The notes under the pieces: generated by a model
Database searches by the model: none
What the model saw: only the letters and a program-made list of their open reading frames with translations
Told to the model about the DNA's origin: nothing
Position numbers and translations under genes: made by a program
In this document: positions 13,095-63,411 of the stretch, piece after piece
Position numbering within the stretch: the stretch's first letter is position 1
How the letters are laid out: each line of letters starts with the position of its first letter
Assembly (NCBI GenBank): GCA_964444755.1
Contig: CAYUIF010000007.1
Span: 54,249-118,248 of the forward strand
Origin: an uncultured Alphaproteobacteria bacterium
Lineage (GTDB): Bacteria; Electryoneota; RPQS01
Length of the DNA: 64,000 nt
Reading direction: 5' to 3'

Positions 13095-13394
13095 ATTTCC
13101 GCCAAAGCAAAACAAAAGGGTCCCGTCAAGGCCGCCGACAAGCCGCGGGAAGCGGAACGGACGGCGCCGCGTTTTACGGTTCCTTTCACGCGCAAAAACT
13201 ACATTGCGTTCGCCGTCGGGTTGGCGCTGGTGGTCTTCGGGTACGTTTTCTTATCCCAGCCGCCCGCCGAGGGCTTCTTGAGTCTTACGCTGGCGCCGAT
13301 CATGCTTGTGATTGGCTACTGCGTGGTCTTTCCTTATGCGATTATGGCTCGCGACAAGAAATCCGAGCCGACGGTCGCACCCAAGGGCGATTAG
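13095..13394 (+). CDS. DUF3098-like two-TM small membrane protein, 99 aa, apparent ATT start (not in the ORF track)
   Basis: Manual translation (M)SAKAKQKGPVK...FTVPFTRKNYIAFAVGLALVVFGYVFLSQPPAEGFLSLTLAPIMLVIGYCVVFPYAIMARDKKSEPTVAPKGD*; GGAAGGA at 13081-13087; no in-frame ATG/GTG/TTG between TAA 13050 and the first TM. Confidence 0.72.
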   Translation: MSAKAKQKGPVKAADKPREAERTAPRFTVPFTRKNYIAFAVGLALVVFGYVFLSQPPAEGFLSLTLAPIMLVIGYCVVFPYAIMARDKKSEPTVAPKGD

Positions 13395-13462
13395 CTCAGC
13401 TGGTCCAGAGCGCCTGCTTTACACGCAGGATGTCGGCGGTTCGAATCCGTCATCGCCCACCA
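13385..13462 (+). tRNA. tRNA-Val (anticodon TAC), CCA encoded
   Basis: Acceptor GGGCGAT/ATCGCCC, anticodon arm CCTGC-TTTACAC-GCAGG, T-loop TTCGAAT, ends ACCA. Confidence 0.97.
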
Positions 13463-13520: not shown

Positions 13521-13597
13521 GGGGTCGTAGTTCAGTTGGTTAGAACGCCAGCCTGTCACGTTGGAGGTCGCGGGTTCGAGCCCCGTCGGCCCCGCCA
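13521..13597 (+). tRNA. tRNA-Asp (anticodon GTC), CCA encoded
   Basis: GGGGTCG acceptor, anticodon arm CCAGC-CTGTCAC-GTTGG, T-loop TTCGAGC, ends GCCA. Confidence 0.97.
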
Positions 13598-23998: not shown

Positions 23999-24037
23999 TC
24001 CCCATTGCTCGTTTCGTTTTCGATTCAGGAGTTCACC

Positions 24038-44600: not shown

Positions 44601-45043
44601 ATCGCGACGGCGAACTGATCAGCGAAATGGTGGCCGATACATTCTTTGTGGATGACAATTTCCCGGTGACGGAATCGGCCGTCTATACGGTTGTAGCCCA
44701 TTATCGTTGGGGAGTATCATTGCCTTCGGAAGGCTTAACGGTATCACTGGCAACTGATGATATTCAGACAGCCTTACCCACCGTGTTTGCGTTGAAGGCA
44801 AACTATCCCAATCCGTTCAATCCGACAACCACCATTGCCTTCGATCTGCCGCAGCGGAGCCAGGTGCGGCTGACGGTTTTCGATGTAACGGGCCGGGAAG
44901 TGGCAACGCTCACCGACCAAACCATGTCCGCCGGAAGCTATAGCGTGGTGTGGAATGCCGCCGGATTGCCCAGCGGCATGTATATGACGGTGATGGAAGC
45001 GGGCGATCACCGCTTCGTACAGAAGATGCTGCTTCTGAAATAG
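41687..45043 (+). CDS. Secreted lysyl-endopeptidase-like S1 serine protease with carboxypeptidase-regulatory-like, FN3 and T9SS type A domains
   Basis: Signal peptide, pro-domain, GDSGSCNNNVNC, TANHC, SDFALL, HHPSGD, GGSSGSP; tail ANYPNPFNP...QKMLLLK. Confidence 0.9.
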   Translation: MFSMFSLKTRSNLGSSLQIWVVCLAVLFGLSIINPASAQISAGGIPPSFAKTLTAAVPTIAMPAIDVAAYLAEDEAAGKDVAYRFGAPIEVSYNLNNSGTWSDLPEGGRVWRLRIESSGAYSIGLLYDQWYIPEGGGLFIYNDDRSQVIGAFTSFNNWTDGTNITQPVAGDATILEYYEPASVTGQGVLAISRVVHAYRNLFGRGNLDNYGDSGSCNNNVNCPEGADWQREKRGVAMILSGGSRICSGSLINNTNNDYTPYFLTANHCLGGETSWVFMFNYESPGCTNQNGPTNQTVANATRRATDTPSDFALLQLSSSIPLTYNPYFNGWNRVDSAGTNSVGIHHPSGDIKKISFDDNPPVSDRYLGSSGVANSHWKIVRWDDGTTEGGSSGSPLFDQNHRIIGQLHGGYASCTSLTPDWYGKFQMSWAYGSSPSTRLRDWLDPGNLDVMVLDGVDPNVTSRIGGTVTGQNALPLAGVRVGVIGGTRETYTDSSGNYLLGMVEGTYNIEFTKFGYERVVVNNVVVMENDTTWVDATLNAVPEGVLRGTVATQIGQGIQGARVYIRNTPYDTLTTDENGQFTLELPATDFEVYAVVVFNADPVVVLETDTVLTIAAGDTTFATIEMFVEFIEPTDPDAYGYRGYDRYDRDLPADYEWVELDPLYGNEGIEFFYPHQDSAIFIPTPFPICFYGNESDTLTVNANGWMLPGVHHEPGNRNFPIPYNAPTDPPGIIAPFWGDIRTGLGEQQFMEYDSAGGRWILEFINQRLASSMSHYQNWEVQFLDPAFYPTLTGDCEFQFVYGQMDGILGSTIGIEAPSEQTGIQIAYNGGLNSTCWPIEDGAAIRFTTGHAAETGSIAGTLILHPSTGNITGAVVRTAGVEMSPNMAGAFSSDAIPACAASALLALPGYEQTRLNHVRVAADSTTNLTIEAWRLDPPRELGSSTAGDVVGLWWRVPLSVEDAPNPDVRYTVYRDGELISEMVADTFFVDDNFPVTESAVYTVVAHYRWGVSLPSEGLTVSLATDDIQTALPTVFALKANYPNPFNPTTTIAFDLPQRSQVRLTVFDVTGREVATLTDQTMSAGSYSVVWNAAGLPSGMYMTVMEAGDHRFVQKMLLLK

Positions 45044-47073: not shown

Positions 47074-50000
47074 TTAGGGCGTAGTGGATGAATAAACGAC
47101 GTAGAACTTGATGCCTTCGCCAACGGCGCCGGAATCGGTAAAGGTGGTTTCGTCGGCGGTGCCTTCAAACGTGGTGTACGGACCTTCCGCGACAGTGGAA
47201 CTGTATACGCGGTAATACGGCGCGCCGGTATCGTTCCAATGCAGAATGATGTCGTTGCCGCTAACCGCCGCCACCACTTCCGGGGCACTCATGGGGAAGC
47301 CGCTGACACGAATCAGGCGATTGCCCGGCCGCGCGGAACTGTGAGCCGCCAGTTCGTCTACCCACATTTCCTCGCACGGATCGTAGACCACCGACCGCCC
47401 CGCCCGCACGCTGGAGGTATCGTGCAGGAACGATTCGTACTTGCCGATCTCGGGATTGGAAACCGCCACATAAAAATCGTCTTCCAAAATCAACGGATCA
47501 CCGGCTACATCGCGGAACAGCACGGTTGCCCATGCTGCCGGATCAGCCATCAAACCGCCGATGACATTGCCGACACTGCCGATGGTCTTGGTCATCACCA
47601 ACGTGCCGGGCATATTGCCGACACCGTCCGCCAAGTATAATTCAATCGTAATCGGAGAATGCGTGGAGTCAGGATTGACCGCCGAAACGCCGATGCGGCC
47701 TTCGCATAGCATGTACGGCATGGTTCCGGCATCGAACTTCACCGCCCAGCGATAATCCACCGCATACGACCAGTTGCTGAGTTCAGCCACACCGTCGTCG
47801 TAGACTTGCTCGGTACCGCAGGCTTCGCCGACTTCAAACGTGTAAACATCAGTCGTCGCCGTCAAACCGCCGGCGTCAATCGTCCGCAGGAAATAATCGT
47901 ACTTCCCGGCGGTCAAGGAACTGATCGTGGCCGCGTACTCATCGGGATAGCCCGTGGCGCTTAAGGCGAGCGAATCGTAGGTGGCCGATGTGGTCAGCTT
48001 GTACACAAAGCGCGTCACAAAGCCGCCGAAATCATCGTAAACCATCGCGGTAACGGTGAAGGGACCGGTCTCTTGATCATCCAATTGATCATGCAGCAGA
48101 ACGGGCGTTTGATTAGCCGGGAGAATCGTGAAATTCGCATCCGATTCGTCCGTGGCCACCACATAGCTTACGCTGGAAACACGCACGCGGGCGGTGCTGC
48201 TGACGGGCAGGTTTACCAGCCACGGATATAGTCCGGTATTGGAGATGCCGCCGGCCAACACTTCCCACGTGCCGCCGGGATAGCTGCGATTCAACTCCAC
48301 ATTGACATTGCCGGATACGTTCTGCGAAGTCCACGTGATGTTATGAGTCGTACCGTCCACCCACGCCTCGCCGCCGTTGGGAGATGTGACCGTAATCGTG
48401 CGTTCGGCAATCGTGAAATTGGCGTTGGAGACGTCGCTCACGGTCGTGTGGGTCACTCCACTCACGCGAATGCGCGCCGCCGACGTGACGGGAGTGGACA
48501 CGGTCCATGAATGGGAACCGTCATCAGCCGTACTGGAAATGATCGTTTCCCACGCGCCGCCGGAGTAGCTGCGATTGAGTTCGATCTTAACATTTTCCGT
48601 AAGATACTGCGACGTCCACGTGATGGTGCCGATATCGCCCGCATACCACGTTTCGCCGCCGTTGGGAGCCGTCACCGTAATTGAACGGGCGGCAATGGTA
48701 AAGTTGGCATTGGAAATATCGGTCACGGTGGTTTGCGTCACGCCGCTGATCCGCACCCGCGCCGCCGTGGTCGTCGGCGACGTCACCGTCCACGCGTAAG
48801 AGCCGTCATTGGCCGTGCTGGCGACGATGGTTTCCCACGTTCCGCCGGAATAGCTGCGGTTGATTTCGATCTTCACATTTTCCGAAATATTCTGCGACGT
48901 CCACGTGATGTTGTAGGAATCATCCACCAGCATGGTTTCGCCGCCATTGGGCGCGGTAACGGTAATGGAAGCGACCGAGCCGTCCAAACCGTCCAGCGTG
49001 TTGGGAGCGGCATTATCGGGATCGAGCCAGTCCTTCAGACGGGTCGCAGCCGTCGAACCGTAATCCCAAGACATGGAAAACTTGCCGTACCAGTCGGCGG
49101 TCAGGCTTGTACACGACGCATATCCGCCGTGAAGCTGCCCGGTGATGCGATGGTTTTGATCGAACAGCGGCGAGCCGGAGGAGCCGCCTTCGGTCGTGCC
49201 GTCATCCCACTGCACGATTTTCCAATGCGAATTGGCAACTCCGGACGTACCCAAATAGCGATCACTCACCGCTGCATTGTTATCGAAACTGATCTTCTTG
49301 ATATCGCCCGACGGATGGTGGATGCCAACTGAACTGGTGGCGGCGGTGTTCACGCGGTTCCAGCCGTTGAAAAAAGGATTGTAGCTGGACGGCACATTGG
49401 AACCCAGTTGCAGCAACGCGAAGTCCGATGCCGTATTCGTCGCGCGCAGGGTGGCATTGGCTACGGTCTGTGTCGTGGGGCCGTTGGCGTTGGTACACGT
49501 GGGACTTTCATAGTTGAACATGAATACCCACGACGTCTCGCCGCCCAGGCAGTGATTGGCCGTTAAAAAATAGGGTGTTTGATCCTGCCGCACGTTGTTA
49601 ACAAGCGATCCCGAACAGATGCGATAGCCGCCGTCGAGAATCATCGCGACGCCGCGTTTCTGAGTCTGCCAGGTGGCGCCTTCCGGACAGTTCACATTAT
49701 TGTTGCAGGAACCAGAATCGCCATAGTTGTCCAAATTCCCATACCCGAACAGATTCCGGTAGGCGTGCACCACTCGCGAAATCGAAAGAACGCCTTGTCC
49801 GCGGACGGTTGCAGGTTCGTAATATTCGAGGGTTACACCGTCGCCCGGCACCGGCTGCGTGATATTCGTTCCATCCACCCAGTTGTTGAAACTGGTAAAA
49901 GCTCCGATGACAAAACTGCGGTCGTCATTATAAATGAACAGATCCGCGCCTTCGGGAATGTACCACTGGTCGTAGGTGAAACCAATAGAATAGGCTCCCG

Positions 50001-50307
50001 GCGATTGCACATGCAGCCGCCACACGCGGCCGCCATCGGGCAGTTCAGTCCAAACACCCGAATTGTTCAAATTGAAGGATACATCCAGCGGCGCGCCGAA
50101 GCGATAAGCGACATCTTTTCCGGCGGCTTCATCTTCCGCCAGGTAAGCGGCCACATCCACGGTTTGCAGGGGCGCCGTCGGCACCGTGCTGGTAATCGCC
50201 ATCTGAAAGCTGCGGGGAGTTCCACCCGCGCTGATTTGCGCAAATGACCCGTGACACAACACCAAAATCATTGCACTTGCCATTAAAAACCGAATCGCCA
50301 GCTTCAT
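47074..50307 (-). CDS. Secreted lysyl-endopeptidase-like S1 protease with three PNGGE Ig-like repeats and non-type-A C-terminal domain; start 50307
   Basis: MKLAIRFLMASAMILVLCHGSFAQ signal; TANHC, SDFALL, GGSSGSP; 3x PNGGE; tail ending KFYVVYSSTTP. Confidence 0.9.
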   Translation of the reverse strand: MKLAIRFLMASAMILVLCHGSFAQISAGGTPRSFQMAITSTVPTAPLQTVDVAAYLAEDEAAGKDVAYRFGAPLDVSFNLNNSGVWTELPDGGRVWRLHVQSPGAYSIGFTYDQWYIPEGADLFIYNDDRSFVIGAFTSFNNWVDGTNITQPVPGDGVTLEYYEPATVRGQGVLSISRVVHAYRNLFGYGNLDNYGDSGSCNNNVNCPEGATWQTQKRGVAMILDGGYRICSGSLVNNVRQDQTPYFLTANHCLGGETSWVFMFNYESPTCTNANGPTTQTVANATLRATNTASDFALLQLGSNVPSSYNPFFNGWNRVNTAATSSVGIHHPSGDIKKISFDNNAAVSDRYLGTSGVANSHWKIVQWDDGTTEGGSSGSPLFDQNHRITGQLHGGYASCTSLTADWYGKFSMSWDYGSTAATRLKDWLDPDNAAPNTLDGLDGSVASITVTAPNGGETMLVDDSYNITWTSQNISENVKIEINRSYSGGTWETIVASTANDGSYAWTVTSPTTTAARVRISGVTQTTVTDISNANFTIAARSITVTAPNGGETWYAGDIGTITWTSQYLTENVKIELNRSYSGGAWETIISSTADDGSHSWTVSTPVTSAARIRVSGVTHTTVSDVSNANFTIAERTITVTSPNGGEAWVDGTTHNITWTSQNVSGNVNVELNRSYPGGTWEVLAGGISNTGLYPWLVNLPVSSTARVRVSSVSYVVATDESDANFTILPANQTPVLLHDQLDDQETGPFTVTAMVYDDFGGFVTRFVYKLTTSATYDSLALSATGYPDEYAATISSLTAGKYDYFLRTIDAGGLTATTDVYTFEVGEACGTEQVYDDGVAELSNWSYAVDYRWAVKFDAGTMPYMLCEGRIGVSAVNPDSTHSPITIELYLADGVGNMPGTLVMTKTIGSVGNVIGGLMADPAAWATVLFRDVAGDPLILEDDFYVAVSNPEIGKYESFLHDTSSVRAGRSVVYDPCEEMWVDELAAHSSARPGNRLIRVSGFPMSAPEVVAAVSGNDIILHWNDTGAPYYRVYSSTVAEGPYTTFEGTADETTFTDSGAVGEGIKFYVVYSSTTP
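48125..48968 (-). repeat. Three tandem 285-bp (95-aa) intragenic repeats
   Basis: NGG codons anchor at 48941, 48656 and 48371, exact 285-bp period; unit ITVTxPNGGE...ITW...ELNRSYxGGxWE...ARVR...SxANFTI. Confidence 0.9.
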
Positions 50308-50593
50308 CCGTTTCCTTTCACAACATGAATCATCTTGTCCGGAGCGGGTGCACAATGCGGATTTCACAAACAGCCGGATTCTAAATTTGGATAGTACCAT
50401 AATATAGAGACACGATCCGCGATTGTCAATTACTTTATCAGCCTCGGAAATTTAACTGCGCAGGACAATCGGCGCGGGTCATGAATGCATCTATTGAATA
50501 TCCATCATGCCTAAACCAATAAGGCTATGGAAATCAGATTCAAATGGAAAATCATTACTAACCGACCAAGAGCATGGAATAGTCAGGAGTGAA

Positions 50594-53731: not shown

Positions 53732-55018
53732 ATGAACAGCAAGGCATTTAATCCGTTTGAGATGGCTCAACGGCAGTTTGACGGCGTGGCCGATTTGTTG
53801 GGACTCGATTCCGGAACGCGAGAAATCCTCCGCAACCCGATGCGCGAGTTCCATTTCCTGATTCCGGTGCGGATGGATGACGGTACAGTTAAGGTTTTCC
53901 GTGGTTTCCGTGTTCAGCACAATGATGCCCGCGGTCCGAGCAAGGGCGGCATTCGGTTCCATCCCCATGAATCGATTGATACGGTTCGAGCCTTGGCCAC
54001 GTGGATGACGTGGAAGTGCTCGGTAGTGGATATTCCCCTCGGCGGCGGCAAGGGCGGCGTGATCTGCGATCCGCATAACCTCAGCGCCCGCGAGCAAGAG
54101 CAGATTTGCCGCGGCTGGATCCGCCAGTTGGCCAAGGATATCGGCCCGCTGGTGGACGTTCCGGCGCCGGACGTCATGACCAACGGCCAGCATATGTTGT
54201 GGATGCTGGACGAGTACGAGCACATTCACGGCGGCCATTATCCGGGTCTTATCACCGGCAAGCCGGTGGGCATGGGCGGTTCTCTGGGTCGCACTGAAGC
54301 CACCGGTTACGGTGTGGTCTATACGGTTCGCGAAGCTTTGAAAGAACTGAACCTCCGTCCCGAAAACACCGTTGCCTCGGTGCAGGGTTTCGGCAATGTG
54401 GCGCAATACGCCATTGACCTGTACACCCAATTGGGCGGCAAGGTGATTTCCGTATCCTGCTGGGATCAGAAGGATCAAACCTCCTACACCTACCGCAAGA
54501 AAGACGGCGTGGATCTCAAGCAATTACTAAGTATTACCGACCGGTTCGGTGGTATCGAGAAGGAAAAGGCGCGCGGTTTGGGCTATGAAGTGCTGCCGGG
54601 CGAGGCGTGGATTGAGCAGGAAGTGGATATCCTCTTCCCGAACGCCATCGAAAACCAAGTGACCGGCGAAAATGTGAACAAGATTCACAAGCGCGTCCGG
54701 TTGATCGCCGAAGGCGCCAACGGCCCCACCACCCCCGAAGCCGACAAGGTCATTCACGAACGCGGCATTTTCATGATTCCTGACTTTCTGTGCAATGCCG
54801 GCGGCGTGACATGCAGCTATTTCGAGCAAGTTCAGTGCAATATGAACTATTACTGGGAACGGGACGAAGTTCTCACCAAGCTCGATACCAAGATGACCAA
54901 CGCTTTCCATGCGGTGAGCGATCTGGCTCGTCAGCGCAAACTGTATATGCGCGATGCGGCCTATGTGATCGCGATCAACCGCGTGGCGCAGGCCTGCCGG
55001 GATCGCGGCTGGGTTTAA
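53732..55018 (+). CDS. gdhA: Glu/Leu/Phe/Val dehydrogenase, most likely glutamate dehydrogenase
   Basis: GFRVQH, GPSKGGIRFHP, GGGKGG, DVPAPD, ATGYGV, QGFGNVA, EGANGP, NAGGVTCSYFE. Confidence 0.95.
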   Translation: MNSKAFNPFEMAQRQFDGVADLLGLDSGTREILRNPMREFHFLIPVRMDDGTVKVFRGFRVQHNDARGPSKGGIRFHPHESIDTVRALATWMTWKCSVVDIPLGGGKGGVICDPHNLSAREQEQICRGWIRQLAKDIGPLVDVPAPDVMTNGQHMLWMLDEYEHIHGGHYPGLITGKPVGMGGSLGRTEATGYGVVYTVREALKELNLRPENTVASVQGFGNVAQYAIDLYTQLGGKVISVSCWDQKDQTSYTYRKKDGVDLKQLLSITDRFGGIEKEKARGLGYEVLPGEAWIEQEVDILFPNAIENQVTGENVNKIHKRVRLIAEGANGPTTPEADKVIHERGIFMIPDFLCNAGGVTCSYFEQVQCNMNYYWERDEVLTKLDTKMTNAFHAVSDLARQRKLYMRDAAYVIAINRVAQACRDRGWV

Positions 55019-55038: not shown

Positions 55039-55076
55039 AAGGGGCGGTTGACAAACCGCCCCTTTCTGCGTAAAAT
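55039..55076 (+). promoter_or_regulatory. Near-consensus sigma70 promoter whose -35 lies in an 11-bp inverted repeat
   Basis: TTGACA (55048-55053), 17 bp, TAAAAT (55071-55076); stem AAGGGGCGGTT/AACCGCCCCTT with loop GACA. Confidence 0.75.
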
Positions 55077-55202
55077 GGGGGAATGCTAAAATTGAGGTTG
55101 CCGGGTATATAAAATCACATACCTCGGCCAGCATTGGCGGGCACAATAAACCGTGCCCTGCGGATTGATTCCTCTCGCCATTTGGAGCTTCCTTAAACCG
55201 AT

Positions 55203-58200
55203 ATGAACCGTCCTCGCCATAAATCCCGATCCATCTTGCCCGAACAAGCCAAAGAACTGAACTGCCTGTTCCGCATCGAGGAACTCTTGCAGAATCCCGA
55301 TGCCGATCTGGATGCCGTGTTCGGCGGCGTGATCGAGGCGATTCCGGCGGGCTTCCACTATTCCGACCTCTGCCAGGCGCGGATCATCTTGGAGAATCGC
55401 GAGTGGGCGCCGGCGGGCTTCGTGGAAACGCCGTGGATGCTGTCGGCGGAGATCACGGTGCATGACGCGGCCACCGGCAGCGTGGCGGTCTTCTATACGC
55501 AAGAGCGGCCGGAAGCTGACCTGGGCCCATTCCTGAACGAAGAAAATAAACTGCTGCAAACGCTGGCGGGACGACTGGGGCAGTTCGTGCAGTATCATAC
55601 GATGCGGCGGAAGAATCTCGAATTGCAGGCCGCACCGGTGGATCACACGATGCAATCGCGGGGCGAGTGGCGGGTAGTGGTGGACTTGCTGCGGCGCACC
55701 GATCAAGCCCTCTATCGCCGCGTGCTGCGCAAGCTGTTCGTGCGGCTGCGCTCGGCGGGCATTCGCGAAGCCAACGAGATTCAGGAAAAAATGCGGGCGA
55801 ACGTGATCCCGACCACCGACGACAACCGCCCCACCCGCAAGCTGGCGAAAGACGTTTCCACGCAGTTGGGTGATGATTTGTTCGATATCGCCGCCCGCTA
55901 TTTTACCGATCAGGATATTCTGAGTTGGGTGCAAAAGTGGGTGCAGGAAGACCGGTCGAGTTTCCTCGTAGCCACGCTGGAACGGCGCAGCACACCGATG
56001 ACCGATGTCGCCGAATCCATTCGCCGCTTCCACCATATCGCCAGCGAAGGCATCGAACTGGCGCCCACCACTGAAAAAGAAGTGCGGGTGGCGCTAATCG
56101 AGCGGTTCTTCACCGATCAGCTGGAATATATCAACGTCGCCAAAGAATACGTTGACGTCAAGGATTTCTATAATCTGCTGCAGCGAATTGTGTTTCCGCC
56201 GGAAAGCCACGGCAAGTTAGGCGGCAAAAGCGCGGGCGTATTCTTGGCTTCGCGGGTGATTCGCGCCGCCGCGGAGGAACACGACATCCTGAAGAACATC
56301 AAGGTTCCCAAGACGTGGCATATCGCCTCCGACGGACTGCTGCATTTCGTCACGCACAACGACCTTGACGAACTGGTCGAGCACAAATACCGCGATATAG
56401 ACGAAGTCCGCCGCGAATACGACCGCATCGTGCAGGTGTTCAAGCATTCGAGTTTCACGCCGGAGATTGTGCAGGGGCTTTCGATGGCGTTGGATGATTT
56501 CGAGGATCGTCCGGTAATCGTACGCAGTTCAAGCCTGCTCGAAGACCGGTTCGGTGCGGCGTTCTCCGGCAAATATAAAAGTTTGTTCCTCGCCAACCAA
56601 GGTCCCAAGCGGCAGCGGCTGGAAGCGCTGATGGATGCCGTGGCGGAAGTGTATTCCTCGACGTTCGGTCCCGATCCGATTCAATACCGCGCCGAACGCG
56701 GCTTGCTCGACTTCCGCGAAGAGATGGGGATCATGATTCAGGAAGTGGTGGGCTCGCGGATCGGCAAATACTTCTTCCCCGCCTTCGCGGGTGTGGCGTT
56801 CAGCAACAATGAATTCCGTTGGTCGCCGCGCATTCACCGCGAAGACGGCTTGGTGCGTTTGGTGCCCGGTCTGGGAACGCGGGCGGTGGATCGCTTAAGC
56901 GATGATTATCCGATTTTGATGGCGCCCGGTCAGCCGGGCTTGCGCGTGAACGTGACGCCCGATGAAGTGATGCGATATTCGCCCTCGAAGATGGACGTCA
57001 TCAATCTCGAAACCAACACCTTTGAAACGGTGGATGTCAAAGAACTCTATCGTGAACATGCGCACGATATTCCGTGGCTGAATCAGGCGGTGTCCATCTG
57101 CAACCACGGACACATGCAGATTCCGGGATTCCTGGCCGATCTCAAGGAAGACGAATTCTGCATGACCTTTGAAGGCTTGGTGACTAAGACGCCGTTCTTG
57201 AAGCAGATGCAGCTCATGCTGCGGCTCTTGCAGGAGAAGTTCGGCACGCCGGTGGATATCGAATTCGCCTCCGACGGCAAGGATTTCTATCTGCTGCAAT
57301 GCCGACCGCAAGCCTATGCCGTGGGCGACGTGCCGTCCACGATCCCGCGCGACTTCCTTCCCGATCAAGTATTATTCACCGCCAAACGGTATGTGTCCAA
57401 CGGTCGGCTGCCCGATATTACGCACATCGTTTATGTGGACACGCAAAAGTACAGCGAAATCGAGAGTCTGGACGAACTGCGCGATGTTGGGCGGTGCGTG
57501 GGACGCTTGAACGGGCTGTTGCCCAAACGCCGTTTTATTCTGATGGGACCGGGACGCTGGGGCAGCCGCGGCGATATCAAGCTGGGCGTGAGTGTCGGTT
57601 ATGCCGACATCAAGAACACTTCGATGCTCATCGAGATCGCTCGCCGCAAAGGCAACTACGTGCCCGATCTCTCCTTCGGTACGCACTTCTTCCAAGATTT
57701 GGTGGAATCATCCATCCGATACCTGCCGCTCTATCCCGACGATCCGGGTATTCTGTTCAATGAAAAGTTCCTGCTGGGTTCGCATAATATTCTGCCGGAA
57801 CTGCTTCCCGACTATGCGCATCTCGCGCATACCGTCCACGTGATTGACGTAACGGCCGTCACCAACGGCAAAATTTTGCGCGTGCTGATGAATGCCGATC
57901 TCGATGAAGCCATCGGTCTGTTCTCGATTCCGTCAACGACGCAGGAAGAAGTGGTTGAATCCAAGCCGCTGCCCACCGATCTGAGCACCGAAGAGCATTG
58001 GCGGTGGCGGGTGCTTATGGCCGAACGCATTGCCGACACCCTCGATCCGCATCGCTTCGGGGTGAAGAAGTTTTATGTGATCGGCAGCGCCAAGAACGCC
58101 ACGGCGGACGCCTCCAGCGATATTGATTTGCTGCTGCACTTTAACGGCACCGCCGAGCAGTGCGAGAGTTTGCTGCAGTGGCTGGACGGCTGGAGCGCGG

Positions 58201-58373
58201 CCTTGGCCGAAGCCAATTTCCAGCGCACGGGTTATCGCTTGAGCCGCTTGTTGGACGTCCATTTAATCACTGACGAAGACATCGCCGCCAAGAACAGCGA
58301 ATACGTGACCAAGATCGGCGCGATTACCGACGCCGCCCGCGAAATCCCCTTAACCGTCGGGCGCAGCGCGTAA
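55203..58373 (+). CDS. GAF-like sensor + PPDK_N/PEP-synthase-type ATP-grasp + C-terminal Pol-beta-type nucleotidyltransferase domain protein
   Basis: KELNCLF...GPFLNEENKLL N-domain; GKLGGKS, VRSSSLLED, FSGKY, IQEVVG, GLGTRAV, DIEFA...LLQCRP; C-terminal YVIGS...SDIDLLLH...LDVH. Confidence 0.88.
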   Translation: MNRPRHKSRSILPEQAKELNCLFRIEELLQNPDADLDAVFGGVIEAIPAGFHYSDLCQARIILENREWAPAGFVETPWMLSAEITVHDAATGSVAVFYTQERPEADLGPFLNEENKLLQTLAGRLGQFVQYHTMRRKNLELQAAPVDHTMQSRGEWRVVVDLLRRTDQALYRRVLRKLFVRLRSAGIREANEIQEKMRANVIPTTDDNRPTRKLAKDVSTQLGDDLFDIAARYFTDQDILSWVQKWVQEDRSSFLVATLERRSTPMTDVAESIRRFHHIASEGIELAPTTEKEVRVALIERFFTDQLEYINVAKEYVDVKDFYNLLQRIVFPPESHGKLGGKSAGVFLASRVIRAAAEEHDILKNIKVPKTWHIASDGLLHFVTHNDLDELVEHKYRDIDEVRREYDRIVQVFKHSSFTPEIVQGLSMALDDFEDRPVIVRSSSLLEDRFGAAFSGKYKSLFLANQGPKRQRLEALMDAVAEVYSSTFGPDPIQYRAERGLLDFREEMGIMIQEVVGSRIGKYFFPAFAGVAFSNNEFRWSPRIHREDGLVRLVPGLGTRAVDRLSDDYPILMAPGQPGLRVNVTPDEVMRYSPSKMDVINLETNTFETVDVKELYREHAHDIPWLNQAVSICNHGHMQIPGFLADLKEDEFCMTFEGLVTKTPFLKQMQLMLRLLQEKFGTPVDIEFASDGKDFYLLQCRPQAYAVGDVPSTIPRDFLPDQVLFTAKRYVSNGRLPDITHIVYVDTQKYSEIESLDELRDVGRCVGRLNGLLPKRRFILMGPGRWGSRGDIKLGVSVGYADIKNTSMLIEIARRKGNYVPDLSFGTHFFQDLVESSIRYLPLYPDDPGILFNEKFLLGSHNILPELLPDYAHLAHTVHVIDVTAVTNGKILRVLMNADLDEAIGLFSIPSTTQEEVVESKPLPTDLSTEEHWRWRVLMAERIADTLDPHRFGVKKFYVIGSAKNATADASSDIDLLLHFNGTAEQCESLLQWLDGWSAALAEANFQRTGYRLSRLLDVHLITDEDIAAKNSEYVTKIGAITDAAREIPLTVGRSA

Positions 58374-58479
58374 TTCACTTTCTCTAATTTCCTCACAACG
58401 CTTTTCGATAAACGACGCGCGCAATGCGACGTCGTTCCTCCTTTTTTTTCGCTGGTGTTTATCTTTGGAAGGAGACGCT

Positions 58480-59934
58480 TTGAGCAAGAAAACTCCCGTC
58501 ATGACTCAACTTCGCGGACTGCAATCCAATTTCTGGATTGCCAACTGGATGGAAGCCAACGAACGGTTGGCGTTCTTCGGCGTCCGCGCCATCGCGCCGC
58601 TGTATATGGTGGCGGCTGTCGCCAACAACGGCTTGGCGCTGTCTTATTCGGAAAAAGGGCTTATCTATACGATCTGGGCATTGGTACAATGCCTCGTGCC
58701 GATGTTCTCCGGCGGCTTTACCGACGAATACGGCTATAAGAAAAGTCTCTATGTCGCGTTCACGATTAACATCGCGGGCTATGTGACCTTTGCCTTCGCG
58801 TCCAGTTTTTGGTCGGCGCTCGCGGCCTCGTGCTTAATCGGACTCGGCACCGCCATCTTCAAACCGCCCGTGCAAGGCACCATCGCCAAAGCCTCCACCG
58901 AAGAGAACAGCTCCATCGCATGGGGATTCTTCTATTGGATGGTCAATGTCGGCGGTTTCCTGGCTCCGCTGCTGGCGGCCATCGTGCGCGGCGAAACCAA
59001 CTGGCGGTTGGTGTTCATCTGCGCGGCGGGCGTTACGCTGTTCAATTTCATTCCCGCGATCTTCTTCTACAAAGAACCGGAACGCACCAATATATCGCCC
59101 CGCAAGACCATCAAGCAGACCTTTATTGATACGATCAAAACGCTCAGCGACAAGAACTTCATGGTCTTCCTGCTGATCTTCAGCGGCTTCTGGTTCATGT
59201 TCATGCAGCTCTGGGATCTGCTGCCGAACTTTATTGACGAGTGGGTGTTCTCCCGCGATATCGCGCCGTTCTTCCACTGGCTCAGTCCGGATCTGGTGCT
59301 GGAAAGCGGCAACGTGAAGCCGGAAATGCTCATTAATATTGACAGTTTCGCGATTATCGCGTTGATGCTGCCGATTGCCTGGTTGACGGGCAAACTCCAT
59401 CCGATGATTGCCTTGATTGGCGGAATGATTATTTCGCTGGTGGGATTCTTCGCCAGCGGCTTCACCAATATCGGCTTCGTCGTGGCGATCGCTATCTTCA
59501 TCTTCGCTATCGGCGAGATGTGGTGCAGTCCCAAGTTCTCGGAGTACATCGGCCTGACCGCGCCGCCCGATAAAAAGGCGCTGTATATGGGCTATTCCAA
59601 TATCCCCTTCGCCATCGGCTGGGCGGGCGGTAATCTGATTTCCGGATATCTCTACGAGAGTTTCGGCAGCAAAGTCAACTTCGCGCGGCAGTATTTAGTC
59701 AATCAACTGGGCATGAGTCCCGCTGAAGCGCAAGCGCTGCCGCAAGAGAAGGTCATGGAGACCATGGCCTCCATGATGAACAACGGCGCAGGCGCGACCA
59801 CCGACGAAGCGACCCGCGTACTCTGGAACATGCATCATCCGTGGATGGTGTGGGCGATCCTCACCGCGGTCGGTCTCATTTCGACGATCTTTATGGTTAT
59901 CTATTATTATCGGACGCGCGCCCGCGCCAAATAA
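58480..59934 (+). CDS. MFS transporter, POT/peptide-transporter-like; TTG start
   Basis: AGGAG before TTG at 58480; ExxER motif (EANERLAFFG), FYWMVNVGG, GEMWCSPK. Confidence 0.85.
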   Translation: MSKKTPVMTQLRGLQSNFWIANWMEANERLAFFGVRAIAPLYMVAAVANNGLALSYSEKGLIYTIWALVQCLVPMFSGGFTDEYGYKKSLYVAFTINIAGYVTFAFASSFWSALAASCLIGLGTAIFKPPVQGTIAKASTEENSSIAWGFFYWMVNVGGFLAPLLAAIVRGETNWRLVFICAAGVTLFNFIPAIFFYKEPERTNISPRKTIKQTFIDTIKTLSDKNFMVFLLIFSGFWFMFMQLWDLLPNFIDEWVFSRDIAPFFHWLSPDLVLESGNVKPEMLINIDSFAIIALMLPIAWLTGKLHPMIALIGGMIISLVGFFASGFTNIGFVVAIAIFIFAIGEMWCSPKFSEYIGLTAPPDKKALYMGYSNIPFAIGWAGGNLISGYLYESFGSKVNFARQYLVNQLGMSPAEAQALPQEKVMETMASMMNNGAGATTDEATRVLWNMHHPWMVWAILTAVGLISTIFMVIYYYRTRARAK

Positions 59935-60030: not shown

Positions 60031-63000
60031 GTGACCATGGACACGCTGCGATTGAATCGTAAGGATACCCTGTTCATCGTTGTCTGTCTGGTGATCCTGA
60101 TCGCGGGAATTCTGGTGGGAATCCGCTACTTCCATGATGCGTTTCCCGAAGCGACCATTGATTTTCGTCTGAACCGTCCCCAATCCGAACAGGTGGCGTC
60201 GGCGTATTTGAAACAACTTAATCTGGCTCCGCCCGCCGATTATCGCCACGCGGGACGGTTCGGCTATGACGGGCTGGCCAAAACCTATTTGGAAAAAGAG
60301 CTGGGAGTGGACGGCGCCCGTCCCTATTTGGGACACCCGATTCGGCTCTGGTATTGGCAGCATCGCTGGTTCAAGCCCAGCACCAAAGAAGAGTTTAGCG
60401 TATTCGTCAGCCCGGAAGGCGAGATTGTCCGGCTGCGGCACGACGTTGAGGAGAACGCCGAAGGTGTAGACCTGCCCGAAGTTGCAGCGCGTCCGTTGGC
60501 CGAGGATTTTCTGTTCCGCACCATGGAAAAGGATTCCACGCGGCTGACGTTTATCGAATCGGAACGCATCGGTCGTCCGCACCGCGCCGATTGGACCTTC
60601 ACCTATCGTATAACGGAAATCGAACCGGTCAAGGGATCGGAATATCGCTATGAAGTGACAATAATCGGCGACCGCATCGGCGGGTATCGCGAGTTCCTGC
60701 ATGTACCGGAAGCGTGGCGCGCCTCATTCAGCAAATTGCGCAGCTATAACGAAATGGCGGGAAATTTCTCCAGCATCGGATTCTTACTGACCGCCATTGC
60801 CATTGTCGCGGTGATTTTCATTCGTATTCGCCGCCGTACCGTGCAGTGGCGGATTGCGCTGGCCTTCGGCATTATCGCGGCAGCGTTGACCTTGCTTAAT
60901 CAAATCAACGATTTTCCTCTCGAACTCTACGGTTACGATACCACCGCCTCATGGTCCGGTTTTCTGTTGCAGCGGATATTGATCGGACTGATTTTTACGC
61001 TGGGATCCGGGCTGCTGATCTTCCTGCTCACCGCCTCCGCCGAAGCCATCTATCGCGAACACTACGGCCAAAAGCCGTCGCTGCCGCGCCTGTTCACCCC
61101 CGCCGGCTTACGCACGAAATCCGCATTCAAGGGAATTCTGCTGGGCGTAACACTCACGTCGTTCTTCTTCGCCTATCAGATTGCCTTTTATCTGATCGCG
61201 GGCAAGTTCGGCGCGTGGAGTCCGTCGGATGTTCCCTATGATAACTTGCTGAACACGGCCATGCCGTGGCTGGCGGTGTTGGCGATCGGTTTTTTCCCGG
61301 CGGTGAGCGAAGAGTTCATGAGCCGTATGTTTTCGATTCCGTTTCTGCAAAAAGCGTTTCGCAATCGCTTGACTTGGCTGGCGCTGCTGATTCCCGCCGT
61401 GATTTGGGGATTCGGTCACGCCGGATATCCCAATCAGCCGTTCTGGATTCGCGGCGCGGAAGTGGGTTTTGCGGGAATTATCATCGGTATCATCATGCTG
61501 CGCTACGGAATTCTGGCCTGTTTGGTGTGGCACTATACAGTTGATGCGCTGTATACGGCATTTCTGCTGTTCCGCAGCGAGAATCTCTATTTCGTGATTA
61601 CCGCCGCAGTTGCCACAGGCTTGCTGGTGATTCCGCTCCTGTTGGCTGTGATTGCTTATATCCGCAAAGGATCTTTCCTGCCGGAAACCGGATTATTGAA
61701 CAACGATATTGCAGGTCCGACCGTTGCACAGCCGGAACCGGCCAAGCCGTCCGTTGAACCGGTGATCGAAACCGCGCCTGCCTATCAGCCGCTACCCTCG
61801 CGTAACCGAGTATTGGCATTGGCGTTTTTCGCAGCGGGAGTCGTCGCAGTGCTGATTCCGGTGAGCAAGATCGGCGATTTTCTGGAATATCCCATCAGCC
61901 GTGAAGCCGCGATTCAAGCCTTTTCCGATACCTTGCGCGCCACCGGTTGGGCGGACCCCGACACCCTGCAAAAAATCGCCGTAATTGACGATGCGGACAG
62001 CAGAGGAGTCGCTTTCGTCTACCTATTAAAACACTCCTCATCCATTGATGAATTCAACCGTGTCGCCGACCAAACGCTGCGGCGCGGCGGCTGGCGCGTG
62101 CAGGAATGGGTTCCCGAAAATCGGCTGCGGTTTTCCGGAGTAGTGCACGGGCGCACCGGCGAAGTGCTCAGCGTCAAACCGTGGCTGCCGGAAGAAATGC
62201 CGGGCGACAGCCTGAGCGAAGACAGTGCGCGGGCGATGGTGGAAGCGATTCTGAAGGCGCGCGGGGTTGATCTTTCCGCGTTAACGATGAAAGAGCATCA
62301 CGAATCGGCGCGGCCGCATCGCTTGGATCATGACTTCATCTATGAAGCCGTGGACGACGATCCGCGTCACATCGCCGAGGCCAAATATCGTATTGCATCA
62401 AGCATAAACGGCGATTGGGTCACGGTCTTTACGCGCCCCTTCTATAAAATACCCGAAGAATGGCAGCGCGCTCGCGAAGCGACGACCGCGCCGCGAGCGA
62501 TTATGCATGGCTTAAATCTCATCGCGTTCTTCGGATTAGGTTTATGGGCGATCTTCTTGTTGGCATCGGTGATTCGCCGCGGATTAGTGCCGTGGAAGCG
62601 CGCCTTTCTGTTCGCCATCCCCCCGGCGGTGATTGCCGCCCTCGGATTCTTCAACGAATTCTATATCACGCGAGCGGATTATTTCTGGCAGGTCGAACAA
62701 CCATGGACGGTTTACCGAACTACCGAGATGACCAGCATCTTGGCCAGCGTACTGGGAGTGTATATCTTCTTCGCCGTTGTGCTGGCATTATTGGGCGGAC
62801 TATTCCACGAGCAGATCAAAGCGCTGAATCGCCGTGAGCGCAAACCGGTTGTATTAGATGCAATCATCGCGATTCTCGGCGGTATCGGCTTCATGCTGAT
62901 TTGGCGCTCTGCTAATGCCTGGGCAAACGCTGGGTTTCCGCACGGAATTATATTTATGGATTGGGATATTCCCGAATGGATGGCGACATCATGGCCGGTG

Positions 63001-63411
63001 TTCAGCATGGCTAGTTCCATGTTAGTGCGAGTGTTTGGCGCAGCGCTGATGATCGGCGTTTTGGCCTATCTATGGAACGGTCCGGCGCGAAAGCCGATCT
63101 TGCGAACCGTGCTCGTACTCGGCATACTTTTCATTTTCATGCCTGCTACTGCGGTTGAACCTGCCGAATGGTTAATGGGCGCAAGCATGGGTGCGGTATT
63201 CATTGTCTTGGCGTTTGTGTTCCTAAGATTCTTCATCAACGGGCGGGCCATTCTGTTTGTGGCGGCGATACTCGGCGCAAATCTATTCGATTACGCATCT
63301 AAGGCGATAACCTTCGGCAATTGGTGGATCATGGTCAACGGCTGGATGTTCGCGATCATTGCCGTAATTCTGATGTTGTTCTGGCTGTTCCCGCGCGGCA
63401 AGACCAACTGA
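60031..63411 (+). CDS. Large internally duplicated CPBP (Abi/CAAX type II) intramembrane metalloprotease
   Basis: SEEFMSR, WGFGHAGY, WHYTVD motifs in the first half; second half repeats the soluble domain and TM layout without these motifs. Confidence 0.85.
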   Translation: MTMDTLRLNRKDTLFIVVCLVILIAGILVGIRYFHDAFPEATIDFRLNRPQSEQVASAYLKQLNLAPPADYRHAGRFGYDGLAKTYLEKELGVDGARPYLGHPIRLWYWQHRWFKPSTKEEFSVFVSPEGEIVRLRHDVEENAEGVDLPEVAARPLAEDFLFRTMEKDSTRLTFIESERIGRPHRADWTFTYRITEIEPVKGSEYRYEVTIIGDRIGGYREFLHVPEAWRASFSKLRSYNEMAGNFSSIGFLLTAIAIVAVIFIRIRRRTVQWRIALAFGIIAAALTLLNQINDFPLELYGYDTTASWSGFLLQRILIGLIFTLGSGLLIFLLTASAEAIYREHYGQKPSLPRLFTPAGLRTKSAFKGILLGVTLTSFFFAYQIAFYLIAGKFGAWSPSDVPYDNLLNTAMPWLAVLAIGFFPAVSEEFMSRMFSIPFLQKAFRNRLTWLALLIPAVIWGFGHAGYPNQPFWIRGAEVGFAGIIIGIIMLRYGILACLVWHYTVDALYTAFLLFRSENLYFVITAAVATGLLVIPLLLAVIAYIRKGSFLPETGLLNNDIAGPTVAQPEPAKPSVEPVIETAPAYQPLPSRNRVLALAFFAAGVVAVLIPVSKIGDFLEYPISREAAIQAFSDTLRATGWADPDTLQKIAVIDDADSRGVAFVYLLKHSSSIDEFNRVADQTLRRGGWRVQEWVPENRLRFSGVVHGRTGEVLSVKPWLPEEMPGDSLSEDSARAMVEAILKARGVDLSALTMKEHHESARPHRLDHDFIYEAVDDDPRHIAEAKYRIASSINGDWVTVFTRPFYKIPEEWQRAREATTAPRAIMHGLNLIAFFGLGLWAIFLLASVIRRGLVPWKRAFLFAIPPAVIAALGFFNEFYITRADYFWQVEQPWTVYRTTEMTSILASVLGVYIFFAVVLALLGGLFHEQIKALNRRERKPVVLDAIIAILGGIGFMLIWRSANAWANAGFPHGIIFMDWDIPEWMATSWPVFSMASSMLVRVFGAALMIGVLAYLWNGPARKPILRTVLVLGILFIFMPATAVEPAEWLMGASMGAVFIVLAFVFLRFFINGRAILFVAAILGANLFDYASKAITFGNWWIMVNGWMFAIIAVILMLFWLFPRGKTN

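Follow-up and report, generated by a model that had tools for sequence, protein, structure and literature searches.

What does a protein that joins a sensor-like domain, an ATP-grasp and a nucleotidyltransferase do when it is encoded beside glutamate dehydrogenase (GDH), and could GDH be its target? GDH connects carbon with nitrogen metabolism and is a main entry point of amino-acid catabolism in protein-degrading bacteria. We know of no dedicated covalent control of bacterial GDH comparable to that of glutamine synthetase by GlnE/GlnD, and our literature searches found no such system. Here we analyzed a 64-kb window (the whole stretch of DNA under study) in which gdh is followed by a gene for a 1,056-aa multi-domain protein, hereafter the long protein. 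Its location beside GDH, here and in at least 10 phyla, makes this protein a strong candidate for a GDH switch that has not been described before. In the searchable full-text literature we found no description of the family or of its linkage to GDH. A mention of PPDK_N in ProFaNA concerns ppsA near SelO.

The gdh locus

The gdh gene (53732..55018, forward strand) encodes a hexameric-type glutamate dehydrogenase of 428 aa, identified by the Pfam domains ELFV_dehydrog_N (E = 6e-54) and ELFV_dehydrog (E = 2e-72); its closest relative in the PDB is GDH entry 1euz (E = 5e-126). The long protein is encoded on the same strand by an open reading frame with an ATG start (55203..58373, forward strand). 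Between the two genes, we read from the sequence a hairpin (55041..55070, forward strand; GGGGCGGTT-GACA-AACCGCCCC, then TTTCTGCG), and a consensus scan identified an overlapping promoter-like TTGACA-17-TAAAAT (55048-55076, forward strand). The hairpin is possibly a partial terminator after gdh and the promoter-like site possibly the long gene's own promoter; because both lie between the genes, co-transcription of gdh and the long gene in the window is uncertain.

Among relatives the two genes belong to a larger module, described below, of which the window contains no more than gdh and the gene for the long protein. Neither the 584-aa short paralog nor the metallophosphoesterase often present in fuller versions was found elsewhere in the 64 kb, and a search against Rfam for riboswitches or other RNA elements near gdh returned only two tRNAs, far away. 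Three other window genes, encoding an MFS/POT transporter (58465-59934), a 1,126-aa protein (60031-63411) and a UDP-glucose dehydrogenase, were considered as module members and rejected, as they are not conserved beside relatives.

Domain architecture of the long protein

The long protein has five parts: a GAF-like domain, a helical region, a PPDK_N ATP-grasp, an alpha/beta domain and a minimal Pol-beta nucleotidyltransferase (AF2 model pLDDT 87.6). The open reading frame and domain inventory proposed in a first-pass annotation of this DNA proved correct by translation, Pfam and Foldseek, with the GAF-like domain a tentative assignment. Full-length relatives share 49–69% identity with the long protein over ~1,050 residues across phyla and are present in at least 590 species genomes. 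Source databases name these relatives 'pyruvate, water dikinase', 'histidine kinase' or 'CheY-like'.

The N-terminal sensor domain (residues ~5-143; 55215..55631, forward strand) is assigned by fold match only. It is modeled as a helix, a five-stranded sheet and a long helix, and Foldseek matched it to the GAF structures 3p01, 8jrc (NifA GAF) and 8w26 with probabilities of 0.99–1.0, weak E values (0.06–0.12) and a TM score of ~0.5. Pfam gave no GAF match in the long protein even at E ≤ 1, and a match in 1/26 relatives (E = 0.1), so the earlier label 'GAF-like' has support from fold but not from a Pfam profile. An all-helical linker or regulatory region follows (residues ~155-330; 55665..56192, forward strand), delimited by DSSP of the AF2 model; it is kept in the family and has neither a Pfam match nor a known family.

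Pfam PF01326 places the PPDK_N-type ATP-grasp at residues 338-704 (56214..57314, forward strand; E = 1.9e-58), in agreement with the first-pass estimate of about 56200-57310. Motifs checked by translation and conserved in this domain are K342, R441-SSSLLED, D685-x-E687, Q699 and R701. Five of these residues (K342, R441, E687, Q699 and R701) are invariant across long and short paralogs and presumably correspond to PPDK K22, R92, E323, Q335 and R337; the predicted nucleotide- and Mg-binding residues are intact. Foldseek matched the domain to rifampin phosphotransferase 5hv3 (E = 4e-14), HpeI 9goj and PPDK 1dik. Among NCBIfam models, the long protein is weakly similar to PigC/RedH and PEP synthase, the latter models scoring 54–59 bits against cut-offs of 598–740 and covering the ATP-grasp only. 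No match to the PEP/pyruvate-binding TIM barrel (PF02896) was present in the long protein or in 26 relatives.

The C-terminus carries a nucleotidyltransferase of the minimal Pol-beta type (MNT/KNT-type; 57993..58361, forward strand), recognized by borderline Pfam matches, by Foldseek and by its catalytic triad. Translation locates the GSAKNATADASSDID motif at residues 961-975 (58083-58127, forward strand; G961-S962 and D973-I-D975) and the third carboxylate, D1018, at 58254-58256 (forward strand). This GS/DxD/D triad is intact in the long protein and is invariant or nearly so across the family. The Pfam profiles NTP_transf_2/Polbeta scored 19–21 bits against cut-offs of 21–27 (for the cut-off of 21, 19.3 bits with the full-length protein and 21.3 with a fragment), and were found in 25/26 relatives with a best E value of 1.4e-9. 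Foldseek matched the domain to 2rff, 8xeh (HEPN-MNT) and 7ae9 with probabilities of 0.89–0.99. The last of these is an MNT antitoxin with a mono-AMPylated HEPN toxin. GlnE or GlnD family profiles were absent from the Pfam and NCBIfam matches of the long protein, as were HEPN-named profiles from the Pfam matches of the long protein and its close relatives.

A new alpha/beta domain

Between the ATP-grasp and the nucleotidyltransferase lies an alpha/beta domain of ~140–200 aa, which we call the C-domain (residues ~720-915; 57360..57947, forward strand), with a core at ~720-850 common to all relatives. Its translation contains a Gly-rich loop, GPGRWGS (residues 782-788; 57546-57566, forward strand), which does not vary among the long and short members of the family, and the sequence SFGTHFF (residues 824-830; 57672-57692, forward strand). 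Alignment and model place the invariant His828 (57684-57686, forward strand) at the N-terminus of a helix, and the invariant residues are N733, N770, G782, G784, R785, W786, G787, E811, S824, G826, H828, F829 and F830. The motifs GRWGS and G[ST]HFF are 40–44 residues apart in 358/360 long, short and receiver-type proteins, and the C-domain is carried by 2,002 clusters at 50% identity.

A G-T-H motif where a helix begins, and the position of the domain, led us to suspect a cryptic PEP-utilizer swivel (GGxTSHAA) in residues 705-915. Four tests were negative: a Pfam search (including PF00391) and a PDB sequence profile gave no match in this region, a Foldseek search of the PDB with the isolated C-domain model (pLDDT 86, pTM 0.87) gave no match (best E = 0.12, probability 0.11), and hhalign against the His domains of Escherichia coli PpsA and PtsI returned a probability of 0.1%. 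The first-pass annotation had reported no phospho-His swivel and no PEP barrel, which these searches bear out, and had named a cryptic His domain as one finding that would count against its reading; none was detected. The C-domain, with no sequence or structural relative in the PDB or Pfam, is a new domain. We propose a new family of GDH-linked PPDK_N enzymes with the GRWGS and G[ST]HFF motifs, and the long protein, which has each of these features, is a member.

Conserved linkage to glutamate dehydrogenase

We surveyed the best 80 loci among relatives, of which 76 had enough flanking sequence to be informative. A GDH gene adjoined the family gene in ~70/76, and this linkage spans at least 10 phyla. 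Orthologues of the window's GDH (57–82% identity) lay upstream of the family gene in 69/80 loci, 67 of them on the same strand, while at one locus a GDH of a second type lay directly downstream of the long gene. Clear exceptions, with adequate flank and gdh not nearby, numbered four.

Fuller versions of the module run in the order gdh, 584-aa paralog, long protein, often with a metallophosphoesterase. The 584-aa short paralog consists of an ATP-grasp and the same new C-domain and lacks the nucleotidyltransferase. Its stop codon overlaps the start of the long gene by 4 or 8 nt in 34/55 loci, and fused short–long proteins of ~1,630 aa exist, showing that the two forms are translationally coupled or fused. 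In a sister family a receiver domain replaces the GAF-like domain and the nucleotidyltransferase is missing; GDH was directly upstream in 3/3 sampled loci, one of them far from any main module. One to three copies of the GAF-like domain precede receiver-type relatives, and the sensor arrangements across relatives include GAF-like, receiver, and three GAF-like copies plus receiver. All three families (long, 584-aa short and receiver-type) sit beside GDH genes, and the core of ATP-grasp and C-domain is universal.

The metallophosphoesterase gene adjoins in 38/80 loci, mostly in convergent rather than co-oriented arrangement; in one case it shares its strand with the receiver-type gene and overlaps that gene's stop codon. 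GDH, the paralogs and this Metallophos gene were the only neighbors that recurred across loci. No GDH fusion was present among the best 150 representative proteins with the C-domain.

These results bear on several points that the first-pass annotation had raised. The gdh linkage of homologues, which it had suggested for other anaerobes and had marked for neighborhood analysis, is conserved across many phyla far beyond chance. The signal-responsive, regulatory role that it had proposed fits the interchangeable sensor domains and the recurrent metallophosphoesterase neighbor; domains that are swapped and multiplied in this way are typical of signaling rather than pathway enzymes. Its GlnD/GlnE-style mechanism centered on the nucleotidyltransferase is not supported, given that the GDH-linked receiver-type and 584-aa relatives lack that domain and that no GlnE/GlnD profile was matched. 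Because those relatives dispense with the nucleotidyltransferase while the ATP-grasp and C-domain occur throughout, this pair, with its invariant His, is more likely to be the catalytic core. The synteny itself points to functional coupling and, taken with domain logic, suggests that GDH may be modified.

Proposed mechanism and alternative explanations

Our preferred reading, to which we give a little less than an even chance, is that the long protein is an ATP-dependent modifying enzyme that is gated by a signal and works either on the neighboring GDH or together with it. The enzyme would be switched by ligand binding to the GAF-like domain or, in the sister family, by phosphorylation of the receiver. 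In every characterized PPDK_N enzyme known to us, the ATP-grasp uses ATP to phosphorylate a histidine. In the long protein the acceptor would most likely be His828 of the C-domain, placed where the PPDK swivel stands; by analogy, its invariance, its position and the chemistry of the family suggest that it may serve as phospho-carrier. GDH itself, or a partner bound to it, could then receive the phosphoryl group; AMP may also, or instead, be added by the nucleotidyltransferase of the long form. Either addition would alter GDH activity, and the metallophosphoesterase is a candidate eraser that would reverse the mark. The complete scheme, a widespread and hitherto unrecognized GDH writer/eraser system with a sensor-gated ATP-grasp, a new His-carrier fold, phosphorylation, AMPylation by the MNT domain of the long form and reset by the metallophosphoesterase, is more speculative, and we consider it, as a whole, less likely than not.

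An unlikely but serious alternative is that the long protein acts on small molecules or makes a signal, with GDH as a pathway neighbor or indirect target rather than a substrate. Its ATP-grasp/His core might phosphorylate a metabolite connected with the reaction of GDH. Alternatively, its nucleotidyltransferase might produce a nucleotide signal, which would be sensed by the GAF-like domain and broken down by the metallophosphoesterase. Small molecules are the substrates of most characterized PPDK_N enzymes, and the nearest structures (rifampin phosphotransferase, HpeI and PPDK) and weak NCBIfam similarities (PigC/RedH and PEP synthase) agree with this. Some Metallophos enzymes are nucleotide phosphodiesterases, cyclic nucleotides and 2-oxoglutarate are common ligands of GAF domains, and one matched GAF structure is that of NifA. 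However, the long protein has no recognizable substrate-binding domain of known dikinases, short and receiver-type relatives remain GDH-linked without a nucleotidyltransferase, sensor-domain swapping is unusual in pathway enzymes, and no other pathway genes are conserved nearby. Less probable again is a non-covalent regulator, one that would bind to GDH and adjust its activity in response to ATP/AMP or to the regulator's own phospho-His state without group transfer; the precedent is VadK, for which such a mode is proposed with the methylcitrate enzymes. The high conservation of both partners (57–82% for GDH and 49–69% for the long protein) would fit a conserved protein–protein interface, and module GDHs carry clade-specific invariant residues and a small insertion. 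Against this reading, the conserved phosphoesterase neighbor and the intact triad of the nucleotidyltransferase suggest group transfer paired with an eraser.

That gene order is conserved without shared function, through hitch-hiking or a horizontally moving cassette whose target is unrelated to GDH, seems very improbable. The four loci with no gdh nearby would suit it, as would the hairpin and promoter-like site separating the two window genes, but the linkage recurs in at least 10 phyla, in two diverged family/GDH pairs and in differing gene orders, while the remaining neighbors are not conserved. We give almost no credence to a conventional PEP synthase or pyruvate phosphate dikinase: the source name 'pyruvate, water dikinase' and the PPDK_N match suggest one, but the NCBIfam scores fall far below their cut-offs and both the PEP-utilizer domain and the PEP/pyruvate barrel are lacking. 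Just as implausible is a toxin–antitoxin or anti-phage defense component of the HEPN-MNT kind. The C-terminal MNT fold would be expected of one, and PADLOC reported weak matches to small MNT-like proteins (PDC-S09, E = 6e-6); these span only ~40 residues around the nucleotidyltransferase motif, however, no HEPN-named profile was among the Pfam matches of the protein or its close relatives, and the gene keeps its place beside a core metabolic gene from phylum to phylum.

If the complete writer/eraser scheme is correct, nitrogen catabolism would be under a GlnE/glutamine synthetase-like layer of control in Calditrichota, Ignavibacteria, Zixibacteria, Acidobacteriota, Planctomycetota and other phyla. 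If the preferred reading is correct, the family would provide a new output domain for bacterial signaling, show another way for dikinase-type ATP-grasp enzymes to carry phosphate, and offer a directly testable switch by which abundant lineages of sediment and soil balance nitrogen against carbon. The module is tied to GDH in hundreds of mostly uncultured species and its sensor inputs, including a two-component receiver, are interchangeable. Recognition of the family would also correct many of the database names given above.

Comparison with known systems

Several characterized systems share parts of this design. GlnE (glutamine synthetase adenylyltransferase) and GlnD (PII uridylyltransferase) are also Pol-beta nucleotidyltransferases; guided by metabolite signals, they control proteins of nitrogen assimilation by covalent modification, the functional analogy that the first-pass annotation had proposed. 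In contrast to theirs, the nucleotidyltransferase of the long protein is a minimal MNT type of ~110 aa joined in one polypeptide with an ATP-grasp, and GDH-linked sister families do without it. MNT antitoxins such as MntA have the same minimal fold and GS/DxD/D triad; they differ from the long protein, which has no HEPN profile, is not a small stand-alone protein and occurs in a housekeeping metabolic context. Protein AMPylation by an MNT fold has a structural precedent, because 7ae9 shows the toxin in mono-AMPylated form, presumably on a tyrosine. A precedent for switching off GDH in this way is SelO, whose AMPylation inactivates mammalian GDH (GLUD1; PMC12375108), although SelO has a pseudokinase fold, is mitochondrial, acts on the antenna of animal GDH and is not homologous to the long protein.

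The dikinase-type enzymes (rifampin phosphotransferase, PEP synthase, PPDK and HpeHI) resemble the long protein in ATP-grasp structure and invariant residues, and HpeHI also in that a two-polypeptide form is possible, as with the short and long proteins. The long protein differs from them in lacking the PEP-utilizer swivel, the GGxTSHAA motif, a rifampin- or pyruvate-binding domain and any recognizable small-molecule domain. VadK (Rv1127c) of Mycobacterium tuberculosis is a PPDK-derived, autophosphorylating His kinase that binds neighboring metabolic enzymes (PMC13400623). Like the long protein, it has a PPDK-type ATP-grasp without a PEP/pyruvate domain and is encoded beside metabolic enzymes proposed as its targets; it is regulatory rather than part of a pathway, as the long protein would be. 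While VadK has a canonical central His domain (His422) and neither a sensor nor a nucleotidyltransferase, the long-protein family would combine an unmatched fold for its candidate His domain with GAF-like or receiver inputs and GDH as its partner.

Conserved linkage to glutamate dehydrogenase

The long gene (55203-58373, + strand; ORF call with an ATG start and 1056 codons) lies directly downstream of gdh (53732-55018, +), which encodes a 428-aa hexameric-type glutamate dehydrogenase (GDH) whose nearest solved relative is GDH entry 1euz. When one genome was scanned for each species, at least 590 species proved to encode a relative of the long protein. Full-length relatives of ~1060 aa with 55-69% identity are plentiful, and a partial protein from a 'Calditrichota bacterium' (P0001) aligns with 69% of the query at 99% identity, which makes a Calditrichota origin of the window very probable. 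For neighborhood analysis we used the loci of the best 80 of these at least 590 relatives (49-63% identity over the whole length), which are the nearest members of a far larger family and come from Zixibacteria, Ignavibacteria/Melioribacteraceae, Calditrichia, Acidobacteriota, Planctomycetota, Gemmatimonadota, Eisenbacteria, Aminicenantes, Myxococcota, Spirochaetes, Bacteroidota, Fermentibacteria and Krumholzibacteria. Database names for these proteins ('PEP/pyruvate-binding domain-containing protein', 'pyruvate, water dikinase' and 'predicted nucleotidyltransferase') are generic or wrong, and full-text literature searches returned no description of the family, its new domain or its GDH linkage.

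Using tblastn with the window GDH, we found a GDH with 57-82% identity just upstream of the long gene in 69 of the 80 loci, on the same strand in 67. Among the other 11, the upstream DNA is too short in five (L006, L055, L078, L008 and L061), and L050 carries a GDH of a second type directly downstream, with none upstream by the same search. Four exceptions were counted: the long gene stands alone without gdh in L004 and L051, and L065 has the short paralog, long gene and phosphoesterase without gdh, all three being clear cases, while L076 has only ~3.7 kb of upstream flank, with gdh absent there and downstream. Apart from GDH, paralogs and a metallophosphoesterase, no conserved neighbors were found across the loci. 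As judged from gene order, the linkage is robust, which confirms and extends the synteny that the first-pass annotation had put forward.

Module-linked GDHs (n = 63) share residues that differ from both the second GDH type and 1euz, including H115 (Lys elsewhere), H154, Y285, W293 and, within a small insertion, W244. Positions 115, 154, 244, 285, 293 and others may form an interface or a modification site.

A short paralog and a candidate eraser

In 56 of the 80 loci, a gene of 581-585 aa is inserted between gdh and the long gene (for example, L003:8217-9962 (+) and L011:8203-9960 (+)). This short paralog consists only of a PPDK_N ATP-grasp and a GRWGS/GSHFF domain and is 29% identical to residues 320-843 of the long protein. 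Its stop codon overlaps the long start by 4 nt in 23 of 55 loci and by 8 nt in 11, and short-long fusions of ~1630 aa also occur (P0025, P0028, P0361 and P0362); from these overlaps and fusions, the two proteins almost certainly act as a complex. In 38 of the 80 loci, the next gene after the long gene, mostly in convergent orientation, encodes a calcineurin-like metallophosphoesterase of ~290 aa (for example, L043:13329-14198 (-)). This phosphoesterase has no curated name and no sequence relative in the PDB, and is a candidate for the eraser of a modification. Neither short paralog nor phosphoesterase is found anywhere in the 64-kb window, which thus represents the minimal two-gene form, gdh plus long gene, seen in about one-fifth of loci.

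Surroundings in the window

The intergenic stretch that separates gdh from the long gene contains a GC-rich hairpin of 9 bp, its T-tail weak, and overlapping this hairpin a near-consensus promoter-like site, TTGACA-17-TAAAAT (55041-55076). These elements could allow high gdh and lower regulator expression, and they make co-transcription of the two genes in the window uncertain. Long minus-strand ORFs also overlap the long gene (55086-56036 and others; 316, 146, 157 aa and more); we take them to be shadow ORFs that arise from GC-rich coding sequence and not to be genes. Downstream lie an MFS/POT-type transporter (58465-59934, +) and a protein of 1126 aa whose sole match, to DUF4901, is weak (60031-63411, +); neither is conserved beside relatives of the long protein, so both are probably outside the module, and a peptide transporter beside gdh may make local sense. 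Further ORFs (868-2856, 10429-12948, 24005-25936, 41687-45043, 47074-50400 and 20951-22915) include an H+-pyrophosphatase and several peptidases (S49, M3 oligopeptidase and two trypsin-like proteins of >1100 aa), and Por_Secre_tail (type IX secretion) sorting domains occur in three scanned window proteins, one of them trypsin-like. This gene content is consistent with a life by protein degradation, for which GDH is a central enzyme. Two tRNA genes (13385-13459 and 13521-13594, +) are the sole Rfam matches in the window.

Domain architecture of the long protein

We modeled the long protein with AlphaFold2 from 116 aligned relatives (mean pLDDT 87.6, pTM 0.71), and the model confidently divides it into five predicted parts. 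The N-terminal domain (residues ~5-143; helix, five-stranded sheet and long helix) was matched by Foldseek to GAF structures 3p01 (Nostoc response regulator), 8jrc (NifA GAF) and 8w26 (phytochrome GAF-PHY fragment) with probability of about 1, yet weak E-values of 0.06-0.12, and a Pfam search did not detect GAF. Support for the GAF-like domain proposed in the first-pass annotation therefore comes from fold and not from a sequence profile. It is followed by an all-helical region without known relatives (residues ~155-330) and by the ATP-grasp (residues 338-704; PPDK_N, Pfam E = 1.9e-58), whose top Foldseek matches are rifampin phosphotransferase 5hv3 (E = 4e-14), HpeI and PPDK. K342, R441, E687, Q699 and R701 of the ATP-grasp are kept in long proteins and short paralogs, and we take them to correspond to PPDK K22, R92, E323, Q335 and R337. 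An alpha/beta domain (residues ~720-915) precedes a disordered linker and a minimal nucleotidyltransferase (NTase; residues ~931-1053), for which Foldseek returned 2rff and the MNT antitoxins 8xeh and 7ae9, while Pfam gave only borderline matches to minimal Pol-beta NTase models near residues 930-990. The NTase catalytic triad is retained in the family. GPGRWGS (residues 782-788), GSAKNATADASSDID (961-975) and D1018 are all present in the translation, as first annotated, and the earlier coordinates deviate by no more than some tens of bases.

A conserved domain in place of the canonical His domain

The alpha/beta domain appears to be new and, from alignments of long proteins and the 29%-identical paralog family, is the most conserved portion of the long protein, with N733, N770, G782, G784, R785, W786, G787, E811, S824, G826, H828, F829 and F830 invariant. 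Across three related families, 358 of 360 proteins carry both of its motifs, which in the long protein read GPGRWGS and SFGTHFF (residues 824-830), at a spacing of 40-44 residues, and a profile of the domain recovered 2002 clusters at 50% identity from 1.84 billion representative proteins. The histidine of SFGTHFF follows a strand and loop at the N-terminus of a helix, at a sequence position matching that of the swivel domain in PPDK, and T827-H828 recalls the T-S-H of GGxTSHAA. A cryptic PEP-utilizer His domain, which the first-pass annotation had named as evidence against its own reading, was nevertheless ruled out as a detectable homolog: Pfam gave zero matches on 31 domain sequences, a domain profile found no sequence relative in the PDB, the isolated domain model (pLDDT 86, pTM 0.87) matched no PDB fold (best E = 0.12, probability 0.11) and hhalign against the His domains of E. 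coli PpsA and PtsI gave a probability of 0.1%. From these four tests, the absence of a recognizable swivel holds.

A receiver-type sister family

Several Acidobacteriota loci encode a second, 33%-identical GDH beside a second relative of the long protein. In L027 (14017-18879 (-)) this relative comprises a receiver (REC), a helical region, an ATP-grasp and the same new domain, without the NTase. It belongs to a large family of ~990-aa proteins, named 'CheY-like' or 'histidine kinase' in databases, whose helical region has a weak DUF5752 match and whose genes directly follow the second GDH type in Acidobacteriota, at times back to back with the main module (also L050:6689-14678). GDH is directly upstream on the same strand in all three members sampled (L081, L082 and L083), one of these loci lacking the main module; in L083, the metallophosphoesterase (8961-9824 (+)) follows the receiver-type gene, its start overlapping that gene's stop.

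Other representatives of the new domain carry three tandem copies or one copy of the GAF-like domain ahead of a receiver-type body (P0439, 1557 aa; P0429, 1524 aa; P0427, 1145 aa), so that the GAF-like domain behaves as a mobile sensor module. Two ~920-aa proteins (P0368 and P0392) resemble long forms without the NTase and are possibly truncated. Because the sister family repeats the GDH-linked pattern, the recurring unit, on comparative grounds, is GDH plus a [sensor]-ATP-grasp-new domain protein, with NTase and phosphoesterase as frequent additions.

Proposed mechanism and alternatives

To our knowledge, in every characterized PPDK_N enzyme, among them PPDK, PEP synthase, rifampin phosphotransferase, glucan water dikinase, PigC, HpeHI and VadK, a histidine takes up a phosphate from ATP and hands it on to an acceptor. 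His828 is the best candidate for the phospho-carrier, since it is the sole invariant histidine near the ATP-grasp and has beside it a Gly-rich loop as well as Arg, Glu, Ser and Asn residues that are likewise invariant. We favor a signal-gated covalent modifier of GDH, in which a signal would gate the enzyme through its sensor domain, GDH would be phosphorylated via His828 and, in the long form, GDH would also be AMPylated via the MNT domain.

Mere synteny would leave GDH and the long protein functionally unconnected, as the clear exceptions without gdh might suggest, but with the pairing recurring in the sister family we consider functional coupling very likely. That the sensor domains are interchangeable and that a candidate eraser exists speaks for a regulator over a pathway enzyme, which we regard as probable; both features strengthen the regulatory reading of the first-pass annotation, although its emphasis on the NTase should shift to the ATP-grasp/His-domain core. 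The 'PEP synthase' reading found in databases is effectively excluded, as is a role in toxin-antitoxin systems or defense. We rate the long protein as a probable dikinase-derived, sensor-gated enzyme regulator. GDH is the only conserved partner able to be the target, and we propose covalent modification of GDH tentatively, as somewhat short of probable. The rivals of this reading are an enzyme producing a small molecule or nucleotide signal, and a regulator acting non-covalently in the manner of VadK.

Comparison with known systems

VadK is the closest system in logic: a PPDK that has lost the PEP domain, it phosphorylates its own His and has interaction partners among the enzymes encoded beside it (PMC13400623). 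However, VadK keeps a canonical His domain and has neither sensor nor NTase, whereas the long protein has both and lacks the canonical His domain. Rifampin phosphotransferase is structurally nearest to the ATP-grasp. GlnE and GlnD offer a functional analogy for nitrogen enzymes, although their family profiles are not among the matches to the long protein. The MNT antitoxin of 7ae9, solved with a mono-AMPylated HEPN toxin, ties protein AMPylation to the minimal NTase fold, and SelO AMPylates GLUD1, showing that GDH can be controlled by AMPylation (PMC12375108).
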